Below, piece by piece: positions 23,106 to 25,600 of a stretch of 25,600 nt of DNA (the first letter of the stretch is position 1; every line of letters starts with the position of its first letter). The translations under genes and the position numbers were made by a program. The stretch lies in NCBI GenBank assembly GCA_016784085.1, contig JADHVH010000006.1, positions 1 through 25,600 of the forward strand, read 5' to 3'. The notes beneath the pieces are model-generated. The model ran no database searches. It saw nothing but the letters and a program-made list of their open reading frames with translations, and had not been told where the DNA came from. Source of the DNA: Candidatus Pacearchaeota archaeon (GTDB lineage Archaea; Nanobdellota; Nanobdellia; Pacearchaeales; GW2011-AR1).

Positions 23106-23480
23106 TTATTTTTCTTGAGAAGATAAATATTGTTGTAATGTTTTTCTATTTGTTTTACCTATAGGAATTGTTAGAGATGCAAAAGCTCTTTCTGGAATAA
23201 CATATTTTGCAGAGACCATAATTTCTTCATTGGTTGAAGAATAAAAATTAAATTTTACACTATCATAAAGAAGTTTATGTTTCAATCCTAATGAACTAAT
23301 TAAATGTTCAGCTTCTTCTTTTTGTAAATAAGAATCTGTGTTAACCTGAAAAATAATTTCATTATTTAAGGCATAATTTTTAGAATCTAAATTTGGTTTA
23401 TGATTATCTAAAAAAGAAAAAGTAAGTATACTTGTTAATAATAATCCTAATAATCCTAATTTTTTTGTATTAGATTTCAT
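23106..23480 (-). CDS. hypothetical secreted/anchored protein (124 aa)
   Basis: N-terminal signal-like MKSNTKKLGLLGLLLTSILTFSF. Last gene of the packed operon. Its stop codon directly abuts the stop of the convergent 22209-23105 gene. Confidence 0.55.
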   Translation of the reverse strand: MKSNTKKLGLLGLLLTSILTFSFLDNHKPNLDSKNYALNNEIIFQVNTDSYLQKEEAEHLISSLGLKHKLLYDSVKFNFYSSTNEEIMVSAKYVIPERAFASLTIPIGKTNRKTLQQYLSSQEK

Positions 23481-23481
23481 T

Positions 23482-23757
23482 TTAAATTAAATCTGCAATA
23501 TTTTTTGTAAGATCATATAATTTAGATAAATTTTCTTGTGCAAATTCATATACTGTAGGTATGAAAGGAGCAATAATTATTTTAGGGAGGTTGGCATAGG
23601 TAGTATGTCCTGCTAATCTTGCTTTAAAAAATCTATCTGGATGTCTAAGTTCCCCTTTACGTTTTTTATTTAAAAAATTCATTAAGCCAATTCCTGGAAT
23701 TGCATTTAAAACATCATCATTAACTAAAGCTCTAAGATATTTTGCCTCTTTTTTCAT
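23482..23757 (-). CDS. hypothetical protein (91 aa)
   Basis: ORF track. 1-nt gap to the next gene. No signal peptide or motif recognised. Confidence 0.5.
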   Translation of the reverse strand: MKKEAKYLRALVNDDVLNAIPGIGLMNFLNKKRKGELRHPDRFFKARLAGHTTYANLPKIIIAPFIPTVYEFAQENLSKLYDLTKNIADLI

Positions 23758-23759
23758 TT

Positions 23760-24140
23760 TTATTTATTATTATTTAATTCATCAAGGTGCATTGGAATAT
23801 ATTTTTCTGGATTTAAACCAAGTTCCCTCATTCTTTTATCTCCAATGACTATTTTGTCTTGTCTTCTTAATTTATACCATGGACTTTGATCTCTTGCAGG
23901 AGATACAGCTGTCACAACTTTTGCATTTGGACCATACCAAATTATATTATGTGGTACAAGATAGCTTGAAATATTTTTTTTAACTATTTGTGAGTCTAAA
24001 GTAGATTGTTCTAAAGAAGTAATATTTAAACTTTTCTTTTGGCATTCTGAAAAAGCATTTAAACCAAGTAATAATAAAAAACTAAGGCCTAATCTTTTAG
24101 CCAGGTTATAGCTTTTTGGAAATCCCTCATTTTCAGACAT
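23760..24140 (-). CDS. hypothetical secreted/anchored protein (126 aa)
   Basis: Positively charged n-region then LGLSFLLLLGLNAFSEC (signal or anchor, Cys after the h-region). 2-nt gap to the next gene. Confidence 0.55.
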   Translation of the reverse strand: MSENEGFPKSYNLAKRLGLSFLLLLGLNAFSECQKKSLNITSLEQSTLDSQIVKKNISSYLVPHNIIWYGPNAKVVTAVSPARDQSPWYKLRRQDKIVIGDKRMRELGLNPEKYIPMHLDELNNNK

Positions 24141-24141
24141 T

Positions 24142-24819
24142 TTAGTTCCTACCTTTGCCTTTCATCCATGCTTTAAATTTGCCTGGATTAACTGAAATTC
24201 CAGCTTGATAAGTTGGTTTTTGACCTTGTGTAAAATTAACTCTAGCATAAGGAGAAATACCTTTTTTTCCACTTCCTAAAGTAGTTTCAACTTCGCCATA
24301 AGTGGATTTAAAATCATTAACATTAGATTGAGTAAATAAACCTAAACTTCCTATTCTTCCTGTTAAAGCATTATATGTATAAAGTGTAGAGCCATCTTTA
24401 GATCCTGCAAGTTCTGCAAAACCAAATCCATGTTGTCCACCATAAGAAGCATTTATTCCCGTATGTATTGCTTGGGAATAATCATCTTGTAAGTATGTTA
24501 AAACAGGACTTACTGCCACTGGGCCAATATTTCCTAGATTGTGTTTTAAATCTGTTTTACTAAAAGGATAATCTTTGTTAATATCTATTAAAGAACTTAA
24601 ACTTGTATTTTTGGTTGGATTAAAACTTGGATATAATCTAATATTACTTCCTTGGCCAACACCTTTTGAGATTTCTGCCCATCCTCCAAACATGGCCTTA
24701 AAATTATCCCAACCAATATATTTCATTTGAGGATTTTGTGCAAGTCCTAATGAAAAAGTTGTTCCAAAAATACCTGCAACTTTTGCTGTTTTAGATCTTA
24801 ATGCGTTTATGAATGTCAT
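24142..24819 (-). CDS. hypothetical secreted beta-rich (beta-barrel-like) protein, 225 aa
   Basis: Leader MTFINALRSKTAKVAGIFGTTFSLGLA|Q. The mature part is G/S/T/N/Y-rich with repeated alternating hydrophobic/polar 8-10-residue stretches and no helix-like hydrophobic run. SD GGAGAA upstream. Confidence 0.6.
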   Translation of the reverse strand: MTFINALRSKTAKVAGIFGTTFSLGLAQNPQMKYIGWDNFKAMFGGWAEISKGVGQGSNIRLYPSFNPTKNTSLSSLIDINKDYPFSKTDLKHNLGNIGPVAVSPVLTYLQDDYSQAIHTGINASYGGQHGFGFAELAGSKDGSTLYTYNALTGRIGSLGLFTQSNVNDFKSTYGEVETTLGSGKKGISPYARVNFTQGQKPTYQAGISVNPGKFKAWMKGKGRN

Positions 24820-24820
24820 T

Positions 24821-24997
24821 TTATTTTCTCCTTTGAGGCAAAGATTGATAGGAATGTATAACTTTTTGATTTTCTACAATATAACATGTAGGATATATTT
24901 CGTAAAGTTTATGTTCTCCATTTTTTTGTAATAAATCTGCACCTACTTTTAATAGATCTTCTTCAGTTTTAAGAGATTTATTTTCAATAGTTTTCAT
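24821..24997 (-). CDS. possible small ORF (58 aa), hypothetical
   Basis: Below the track cut-off. ATG 24995-24997, TAA 24821-24823. MKTIENKSLKTEEDLLKVGADLLQKNGEHKLYEIYPTCYIVENQKVIHSYQSLPQRRK. It fills the space between neighbours exactly (2-nt and 1-nt gaps). Weakly resembles the C-terminus of the partial ORF at 25373-25600. Confidence 0.4.
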   Translation of the reverse strand: MKTIENKSLKTEEDLLKVGADLLQKNGEHKLYEIYPTCYIVENQKVIHSYQSLPQRRK

Positions 24998-24999
24998 TT

Positions 25000-25371
25000 T
25001 TATTGGTTTTCTCCTGTTTGTTCTTCGTATCCTGCTTTAATTAAAGAATAATCTGCTTGTAATACTCTTCCAAATTGAGAATTTACTTTTATTTCTTTTG
25101 CTTTGGTTGGAAATGGATTTTTATGATTTTCCCCTACAATAAAATAAACTTTTCCATTTGAAAGTTCAACTTTATCAGGTGATTTTTCTGTCCATAGATA
25201 ATCTGTAAAAATTGTTTCTTGTCCTAAAAAATTTCTTTGAGTATATTTATCAATTGCACCTTCGCTTTGATTTATAATTTCTGCTTTACACCCCATAAAG
25301 CTTAAGGCTATGCTTCCTAATCCTCCAATTTTTGCTGCTGTTTTTGATCTTAATTTATTCATGAATGTCAT
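25000..25371 (-). CDS. hypothetical secreted / possible lipoprotein (123 aa)
   Basis: Leader MTFMNKLRSKTAAKIGGLGSIALSFMGC|KAE, with a lipobox-like FMGC. SD GGAGGAGAA upstream. The leader is shared with 24142-24819. Confidence 0.55.
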   Translation of the reverse strand: MTFMNKLRSKTAAKIGGLGSIALSFMGCKAEIINQSEGAIDKYTQRNFLGQETIFTDYLWTEKSPDKVELSNGKVYFIVGENHKNPFPTKAKEIKVNSQFGRVLQADYSLIKAGYEEQTGENQ

Positions 25372-25372
25372 T

Positions 25373-25600
25373 TTACCATTCTCCTCCAGTAATTTCTTCC
25401 TCTAAACTAGGGCTATAGTTCCAATCTATTTGATTATCTGTATTTAAATTAAAATTATGTTCTGCATATTTTACTAAATGTTCTTTTTTATCTTCATTGG
25501 GTTTATTTAAATAAACTGGATCTGCTCCAGCATCTAAAAGAATTTGAATATCTTCAATATCAACACCATAAACTTCATCATGATATCCTTGAGCTATTTT
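25373..25600 (-). CDS. hypothetical protein, C-terminal part (5' end outside window)
   Basis: Frame is open from the window edge to TAA at 25373-25375. ...KIAQGYHDEVYGVDIEDIQILLDAGADPVYLNKPNEDKKEHLVKYAEHNFNLNTDNQIDWNYSPSLEEEITGGEW. The stop lies 1 nt before the next ATG. Confidence 0.45.
   Translation of the reverse strand, partial: KIAQGYHDEVYGVDIEDIQILLDAGADPVYLNKPNEDKKEHLVKYAEHNFNLNTDNQIDWNYSPSLEEEITGGEW

Follow-up and report, generated by a model that had tools for sequence, protein, structure and literature searches.

The window analysed here is a stretch of 25,600 nucleotides from contig JADHVH010000006.1, part of a metagenome-assembled genome (MAG) of a Candidatus Pacearchaeota archaeon. 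At its right end lies a row of tightly packed minus-strand genes, and the gene of main interest among them is g10, which encodes a predicted exported, porin-like beta-barrel of 225 amino acids (aa). An initial annotation, made from the letters alone, had described seven minus-strand open reading frames (ORFs) in this region that were spaced by 1-2 nt, almost certainly co-transcribed and translationally coupled, and continued beyond the window. All seven were found where it had placed them, with measured gaps of 1, 2, 1, 1, 2 and 1 nt. The genes are numbered here in the order of transcription, and the window carries g7, which is cut by its end, through g13.

An exact-protein look-up with the 225-aa g10 product returned nine contigs. 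One of these, L001 (ENA ERZ24794647; this and similar labels denote related metagenome contigs or loci), is 100% identical to the window across 11,459 nt and runs past position 25600, and its positions were converted as window coordinate = 28935 - L001 coordinate. L001 adds six genes and a promoter to the seven ORFs in the window. Together they make up a predicted minus-strand operon of 13 genes, with virtual window coordinates 23106-28226. The row of genes does continue past the window, and the initial annotation had seen 7 of the 13; the predicted barrel nature of g10 was not visible in it. The proteins from g1 to g13 are 192, 118, 123, 104, 180, 122, 100, 123, 58, 225, 126, 91 and 124 aa long.

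The 13 genes lie on the same strand with gaps of 1-7 nt and a coding density of 99.5%, and every one of them ends in TAA. The start context TAAA(A)ATG was present in 13 of 13 operon genes, compared with about 5 of the 24 other window genes. The window has a GC content of about 27%, at which an estimated ~0.085 stops per random codon (roughly 1 codon in 12) is expected, and for this reason the ORFs of 58-225 codons lying end to end are not attributable to chance. A single TTTATAWA box was found on the operon strand within 6 kb. It is located 37 nt before the ATG of g1, on the side where the operon begins 79 nt past the ribosomal L10e gene, and the promoter-region sequence GTAGTAACAyAATAGAAAGATTTATAAAC is kept in the related loci L007 and L013. 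Judged from the sequence, g1-g13 probably form one operon transcribed from a single archaeal promoter (transcription factor B recognition element and TATA box) just downstream of L10e, and translation is probably coupled via the uniform TAA-A(A)-ATG junctions. The one TATA box, the coding density and these junctions agree with the co-transcribed and coupled operon that had been proposed.

The g10 product is MBL7059053.1, a protein of the Candidatus Pacearchaeota (DPANN) MAG, and the archaeal genes in the flanks include L10e, L35Ae, diphthamide synthase, proteasome, aCPSF1-type beta-CASP and TrmB genes. This fits the DPANN-type archaeon that the initial annotation had assumed from the letters. 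The barrel gene stands among archaeal genes in this MAG and in more than 10 independent assemblies; because the same arrangement recurs in so many assemblies, chimeric contigs with bacterial DNA are an unlikely source. The MAG contig that forms the window stops within g7, and g1 (ISS08_02405) is found on another contig of this MAG, which is 9.3 kb long.

The predicted barrel protein g10 and its family

The g10 gene (24142-24819, minus strand) is the conserved core gene of the operon. From the family alignment, its signal peptide covers aa 1-28 (24736-24819, minus strand) with a putative cleavage site at LGLA/QN. By inspection, the signal peptides of the family have a basic n-region, a hydrophobic core and A-x-A type sites (VQA/QN, ANA/QN, VHA/QK), and these features were seen in all full-length aligned members, the exceptions being the truncated P0020 and P0022. 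AlphaFold2, run with a 14-sequence alignment, gave a model of 12 antiparallel strands with a mean predicted local distance difference test score (pLDDT) of 79.5. The score was about 85-92 over residues 45-220 and below 50 for residues 1-36, and the five models agreed with each other (mean pLDDT 75.7-79.5). The predicted barrel domain corresponds to aa 46-211 (24187-24684, minus strand), with DSSP strands spanning 48-210.

When the model was compared to the PDB with Foldseek, the top 50 matches were all bacterial outer-membrane barrels. The best was KdgM (4fqe; E = 4.3e-7, template-modelling score (TM) 0.74), NanC had a TM of 0.61, and VhGalP, PcoB, intimin/invasin and OMPLA were also matched. 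The viral structure library BFVD returned phage-borne outer-membrane proteins (OMPs) only. KdgM and NanC (PF06178; 4fqe, 2wjq) resemble g10 in having a cleavable signal peptide and a domain of about 170-200 aa, and they share with its model 12 antiparallel strands with short connections; their polar or charged lumen would correspond to the polar face of g10. On the basis of the model, g10 is predicted to be a small, Sec-exported, 12-stranded barrel of the KdgM/NanC type.

The residue pattern of the strands was then compared with the model. Dyad alternation was present in 12 of 12 predicted strands, with a mean Kyte-Doolittle value of +1.34 on the hydrophobic face and -1.31 on the polar face. 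Strand columns that are near-invariant (at least 90%) in the family were concentrated on the polar face (20, vs 5 on the hydrophobic face; p = 0.006). The hydrophobic face is variable and drifts among L, I and V, and the polar/aromatic face is conserved. Conservation on the polar side combined with drift on the aliphatic side suggests that the lumen is polar and the exterior faces lipid; a soluble barrel packed around a hydrophobic core would be expected to show the reverse. Insertions in the alignment fall mostly between predicted strands. After the last strand, TYQAGISV, come a basic helix and a tail (GKFKAWMKGKGRN), and K/R-rich tails end every member of the family.

The family is rare. Homologues of g10 numbered 13 among 5.8 billion proteins, and a profile search of 1.84 billion representatives found 19 clusters, all in Nanoarchaeota-type contigs. 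Among GTDB species representatives (14-sequence alignment) there were two only, one in a Woesearchaeota MAG and one in a Nanoarchaeota MAG. g10 is the only operon member conserved beyond the genus; g1 had 3 homologues and g13 had 2 in the 5.8 billion proteins. At seven independent loci, the g10 homologue lies in a tight same-strand cluster of small genes.

The position between L35Ae-L10e and the convergent nucleotidyltransferase gene holds a related cluster in L007, L020 and L013, so that the gene neighbourhood, which the initial annotation had proposed to check, is conserved in three related genomes. L007 is a sister strain with a 94% identical g10. L020, a 511-kb contig, has a 72% identical g10 and keeps g1, g5, g10 and g13 in order at 54-72% identity. 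L013 has a 57% identical g10 in a cluster of four genes only. The idea of g1 as a conserved first gene across loci was rejected: compared by BLASTP with the genes that come first in L013 and L011, it gave nothing significant, and only the position and the promoter are kept. At the distant loci L008, L010/L022, L015, L017 and L021, the barrel gene ends or sits inside a tight same-strand cluster. Encoded just upstream of the barrel at these loci is a TrmB-family regulator that includes an effector-binding domain (PF01978 + PF11495); the minimal cluster, in L021, consists of TrmB and the barrel, and the window locus is without the regulator.

By a regular expression for lipobox-like N-termini, a small lipobox protein was found beside or near the barrel gene in L001, L007, L008, L015, L017 and L027; inspection added L020 (LVTC). 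The genes for lipoprotein and barrel often share their 5' ends: 25 of the first 30 nt are identical in L001, 30 in L007, 22 in L008 and 18 in L017, compared with averages of 11-14 for other gene pairs. This sharing was seen at 4 of the 7 loci. The remaining partner genes of the distant loci were unrelated by BLASTP. In L015, the third gene past the g10 homologue (7074-7661) encodes a second beta-rich protein with a signal peptide (195 aa, ending in ...LKTNFNFGKN). Its signal peptide finishes in the same way (LPMKKSQAQN), and an hhalign comparison to the g10 profile matched the signal peptide only; this protein may represent another barrel family of these archaea.

Partner genes and strain turnover

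The gene g8 (25000-25371, minus strand) encodes a predicted lipoprotein of 123 aa, the mature domain of which is hypervariable between strains. Its signal peptide and putative lipobox occupy aa 1-28 (MTFMNKLRSKTAAKIGGLGSIALSFMGC; 25288-25371, minus strand), as picked up by the regular expression for a lipobox-like N-terminus. The signal peptide ends in the lipobox-like SFMG-C28, and in SFTG-C28 in the L007 counterpart, with F and not L/V/I at position -3. Lipoproteins next to the barrel at other loci are nearer to the lipobox consensus [LVI][ASTVI][GAS]C (LMAGC, LVGC, LFSSC). A FecR match of g8 (E = 0.011, 16.6 bits vs a cutoff of 24) was sub-threshold and was treated as noise.

The initial annotation had pointed to a repeated gene start, ATGACATTCAT, and had read it as part of a duplicated two-gene module. 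The repeat is real. It is a 40-nt direct repeat, 88% identical, that encodes MTF(M/I)N(K/A)LRSKTA, with copy 1 at 24784-24823 (TAA-A-ATG junction and g10 start) and copy 2 at 25336-25375 (junction and g8 start), both on the minus strand. The gene starts of g8 and g10 are identical at 25 of 30 nt in L001, vs a mean of 14.2 for other gene pairs. GGAGAA-like motifs were likewise present ahead of g8, g9 and g10. The module itself did not survive: the likeness of g8 to g10 is confined to residues 1-20, and that of g7 to g9 to the first 16, where a Smith-Waterman comparison found similarity (z = 4.4, p = 0.0015) and BLASTP gave no alignment. This similarity lies elsewhere than the ED..LL.xGAD segment that had been taken as the common part of g7 and g9. 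On the sequence, the "duplicated module" is mainly the shared signal-peptide 5' end of g8 and g10. Strong, full-length duplications do exist, mostly outside the window, between g2 and g6 (BLASTP E = 6e-20) and between g3 and g7 (E = 8e-13). The LLxxGADxxYLN motif of g3, g7 and g9 is one that we took to be ankyrin-repeat-like. This reading was dropped because no Ank family matched at E <= 1 and because the similarity of g7 and g9 lies outside the motif.

The other partners are small. g7 (25373-25600, minus strand; 100 aa in full, cut by the window end) is acidic, has no signal peptide, is a paralogue of g3 and is 96% identical in L007, with no Pfam match. g9 (24821-24997, minus strand; 58 aa) also lacks a signal peptide, has no counterpart in L007 and is probably a truncated relative of g7. 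g11 (23760-24140, minus strand; 126 aa) has an N-terminal anchor or signal (residues ~13-33) followed by an external domain of ~95 aa with two N-x-S/T sequons. It is 100% identical in L007 and matches no family. The basic g12 (23482-23757, minus strand; 91 aa) has no clear signal peptide or transmembrane segment, is 98% identical in L007 and likewise has no family match. The last gene, g13 (23106-23480, minus strand; 124 aa), has a hydrophobic segment at 7-25 and a small alpha/beta external domain, which AlphaFold2 modelled with a b-a-b-b-b-a topology (pLDDT 74 overall, about 85-89 for residues 40-121); its L020 orthologue is 54-55% identical. Upstream of the window, g5 is a glycine-rich hydrophobic hairpin. 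The claim of at least four products with N-terminal signals or anchors was borne out by g8, g10, g11 and g13 (four of seven, by hydrophobicity and motif inspection); by the same means g7, g9 and g12 had no export-type N-terminus.

No recognisable family was found for any of the products, as the initial annotation had reported from inspection. Nothing was significant when the 13 operon products were compared to Pfam, NCBIfam, PHROGs and PADLOC, where matches with E > 0.01 were regarded as noise. The best PHROGs match had E = 0.064, PADLOC gave no matches, IMG/VR held no relative of g10 and tblastn against a phage collection found none. A prophage or lysis cassette (holin-like hairpins, a spanin-like lipoprotein and an anchor) was considered and rejected, as there were no viral matches and no endolysin. 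The outcomes that the initial annotation had named as counting against it, namely homology to housekeeping families, an absence of signal peptides and a lack of neighbourhood conservation, were not what we found.

Comparison of L001 with the sister strain L007 revealed high turnover of the partners. Identity is 98.4% over 8.7 kb from g10 downstream and 99% over g3-g5. L007 is without g2, g6, g8 and g9, which are replaced there by a 91-aa gene, a paralogue of g4 and a 216-aa lipoprotein that carries the signal peptide of g8 (74% identity over 31 aa) on an unrelated mature domain. That mature domain (L007 7346-7996) contains three or four repeats of the GFHxITPxDxGYTAxxG type and has no Pfam match. 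g4 and its L007 paralogue are ~90% identical at their 5' and 3' ends, and the proteins are 37% identical. The g1-g10 stretch is, as far as sequence comparison goes, a cassette-variable zone, in which genes are gained, lost and swapped and the 5' and 3' ends are conserved. This variability fits a diversification of surface-exposed parts. The assembly break of the MAG falls in this strain-variable zone.

L35Ae, L10e and g1 are only 86% identical between L001 1-1291 and L007 3930-5232 (L10e dS = 0.28). Such mosaic divergence suggests that a tract recombined in from a less closely related lineage and ends inside the operon. The conserved TAAAATGAC junctions in the g1-g10 interval are candidate sites of cassette exchange. 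Directly before g1 lies a three-codon mini-ORF, ATG TCA CAA TAA (MSQ*; L001 693-711, virtual window coordinates ~28224-28242), which recreates the junction CACAATAAAATG seen after g3 and g4, whose ends are ...SQ*. SQ* ends also occur in g6 and in the g4 paralogue of L007, and conserved junctions lie before g3, g4, g5 and the L007 gene g8'. Cassettes may recombine at the CACAATAAAATG junctions, or these may offer a favoured context for re-initiation. ATGAC(A) (Met-Thr) starts are strikingly frequent in these clusters, the distant L011 included.

The ratio of nonsynonymous to synonymous divergence (dN/dS) was calculated pairwise for g1, g10 and g13 and was 0.37-0.78 vs L020 where computable, in comparison to 0.02-0.16 for L10e. 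The operon values are below 1, yet 3-40 times above those of L10e. Hypothetical cell-surface proteins with N-terminal anchors, no assigned function and elevated nonsynonymous variation have been described in Nanoarchaeota as candidates for host interaction (Jarett et al. 2018; PMC6142677). The dN/dS of g1, g10 and g13 is similar to that pattern; the published work defines a category and not a family, and no barrel or operon of the g10 kind is described in it. The Vlp/Vsp/Vsa lipoproteins of Mycoplasma resemble the pair formed by g8 and its L007 counterpart in combining a conserved signal-peptide and lipobox 5' end with a variable mature domain. At the present locus, by contrast, there was no sign of phase-variation machinery, of an invertible promoter or of tandem-repeat tracts, the variation lies between strains, and the 5' end is also shared with a predicted barrel that is not a lipoprotein. 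By analogy, the 5'-conserved variability of the g8 type suggests diversification of an exposed surface component.

Interpretation of the operon

Taken together, we favour the explanation that the operon is a lineage-specific cell-envelope module around an exported porin-like channel, g10, with a variable lipoprotein partner, and we give this a probability of roughly 0.55. It builds on the anatomy of the operon and the pattern of its conservation, together with the signal-peptide motifs and the fold prediction. g10 would be made with a cleavable Sec signal peptide, exported, and folded as a 12-stranded barrel. Since a barrel in the cell's own cytoplasmic membrane would harm the cell, the exported protein would have to enter another bilayer, which may be an undescribed outer membrane or vesicle or else a host-cell membrane, and would act in it as a small channel for solutes, with a conserved polar/aromatic lumen and a variable, aliphatic, lipid-facing belt. 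Its partners would be the lipobox lipoprotein g8, which shares the signal-peptide start of g10, the anchored external domains of g11 and g13 and, further upstream, the transmembrane-hairpin protein g5 and the small cytoplasmic paralogue sets g2/g6 and g3/g7/g9. The membrane insertion, channel function and target membrane in this scheme are all inferred. The initial annotation had proposed a cell-surface or host-contact module, which points the right way but is incomplete. The several exported products support the former, and the host-contact part we infer. KdgM and NanC are channels for sugar acids that are controlled by sugar-responsive regulators, and the distant g10 loci resemble them in carrying a sugar-sensor-type TrmB regulator. 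This association and the structural resemblance give a weak hint of sugar-type solutes.

Several points weigh against this explanation. The fold is a prediction from a shallow, 14-sequence alignment, and the inside and outside of the strand faces are assigned from conservation. No sequence-level kinship with bacterial OMPs was found. g10 had no match in Pfam at E <= 1, none of the 23 aligned family members matched Pfam OMP families at E <= 1, the g10 profile had 0 matches at E <= 10 among all PDB sequences, and it found no link to bacterial OMPs among 1.84e9 representatives. By sequence, g10 has no detectable similarity to KdgM/NanC and does not belong to that family. The g10 C-terminus appears to be a basic amphipathic helix, in contrast to the terminal aromatic beta-signal recognised by the beta-barrel assembly machinery (BAM) and found in KdgM/NanC. 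These porins reside in the diderm bacterial outer membrane, whereas g10 is encoded in an archaeon without a known outer membrane or BAM; as far as we are aware, Pacearchaeota have no described outer membrane, and archaea no known Omp85/BamA. The g13 model had no match in the structure library (best E = 0.33). Most of the partners are genus-level orphan genes that do not accompany the barrel at distant loci, which weakens the case for a single coherent system.

A further alternative concerns the orientation of the barrel. Hydrophobic/polar dyad alternation alone cannot tell which face is inside, and g10 could be soluble after secretion and hold a hydrophobic ligand, such as host lipids or isoprenoids, inside its barrel. 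The aliphatic face would then line a cavity and the polar face would be exposed to solvent, which would make the operon one for lipid scavenging and not for a channel. DPANN archaea are not known to make these compounds and rely on the host for lipids, a dependence that would suit such a carrier. Their general lifestyle is described in PMC11291902 and PMC11329633, and porin-like barrels that trap lipids exist in bacteria in the PopA superfamily (PMC12228718). We regard a lipid carrier as unlikely given that 20 of the 25 near-invariant strand columns lie on the polar/aromatic face, the reverse of a ligand cavity or packed core, and that nine conserved aromatic residues would be solvent-exposed. 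In addition, every structural neighbour is a barrel integral to a membrane, and carriers of the lipocalin, FABP or LolA type were absent from the top 50. The barrel could also be an AlphaFold artefact, in which case g10 would be a beta-rich secreted or S-layer-associated protein with an open sheet or sandwich and the operon would encode ordinary archaeal surface proteins. The small alignment and the absence of a sequence-level tie to any solved structure would allow this, as would the tendency of alternating sequences rich in G, S, T, N and Y to be over-predicted as barrels. The agreement of the five models, with pLDDT of ~90 across the barrel, argues against an artefact. So do the coincidence of strand boundaries with the independent dyad periodicity in 12 strands, the placement of alignment insertions mainly between strands, and the TM of 0.74 to a real 12-stranded porin, and we think the artefact the least probable of the explanations considered.

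Another possibility is that there is no coherent system, and that the locus is a fast-turnover island of unrelated orphan genes, maybe remnants of mobile elements or viruses, packed together by genome compactness. The replacement of g2, g6, g8 and g9 by three other genes in L007, which is ~98% identical over most of the shared region, would be expected of such an island, and so would the two or three homologues of most members in 5.8 billion proteins, the unrelated partner genes at distant loci, the elevated dN/dS of 0.4-0.8 and the assembly break of the MAG inside the locus. There is, however, no integrase, no element-bounding repeats and no PHROG, IMG/VR or phage match, and the same housekeeping flanks are found in four genomes. 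The order of g1, g5, g10 and g13 is kept down to 54-72% identity, the pairing of barrel and lipoprotein recurs in independent lineages, and there is a single promoter with uniform coupling junctions. On balance, a mere island seems improbable to us.

Within the favoured explanation of a cell-envelope module, a more specific version is offered tentatively. g10 may represent a genuine transmembrane porin-type barrel family that is Sec-exported and BAM-independent and resides in a second membrane, either the cell's own outer membrane or that of the host, with the hypervariable lipoprotein giving specificity. If this is true, it would be the first archaeal OMP-type channel family and, in a host membrane, the barrel would be the nutrient tap of the symbiont. 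Porin-type transmembrane beta-barrels count as a hallmark of outer membranes in bacteria, mitochondria and plastids. Archaea, including the few with two membranes, are not known to use them. In this context, the predicted fold would make g10 a previously undescribed sequence-orphan family with a porin-type fold in archaea. A search of the literature for OMP-type barrels in DPANN archaea found no report, the nearest being a tentative relative of the PopA superfamily in Altiarchaeales (Nat Commun 2025, PMC12228718). The PopA proteins are small OMP-like barrels at a predator/prey or cell-surface interface (PMC12228718), a setting that g10 may share. They differ in forming pentameric chambers, in strand number and in family, and no PopA structure was among the top PDB matches of g10.

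The g10 family, rare yet conserved in Pacearchaeota, Woesearchaeota and other Nanoarchaeota, raises the question of whether such uncultured, ultra-small archaea are enclosed by a second lipid barrier or instead place a channel in a partner's membrane. How DPANN archaea extract metabolites from their hosts is an open problem, and imaging has so far shown only nanotubes derived from the host and cytoplasmic bridges (PMC11329633). Mature g10 has ~190 aa and could easily be synthesised and refolded, and the gene could serve as a marker in Pacearchaeota enrichments. As a smaller point, cassette turnover with conserved gene ends informs how tiny genomes diversify their surface.

Other genes of the window

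At 23105/23106, g13 abuts a convergent gene for a 298-aa nucleotidyltransferase (22209-23105, plus strand) with zero intergenic bases, which leaves no space for a terminator between them. The nucleotidyltransferase belongs to Polbeta/NTP_transf_2 and has a weak MntA-like match. Three sizeable ORFs in the window are without a Pfam family: 18250-19746 (498 aa), 19792-20292 (166 aa) and 4273-4956 (227 aa). The 498-aa and 227-aa ORFs were scanned directly against Pfam, and the 166-aa ORF had no precomputed Pfam match. The 498-aa and 166-aa genes are conserved beside a 590-aa gene of the AP_endonuc_2 type in L007 and L003. At 15868-17088, the window encodes a 406-aa homologue of class-I Glu/Gln tRNA synthetases that matches the catalytic domain only (residues 95-392) and seems, from its sequence, to be without the anticodon-binding domain.

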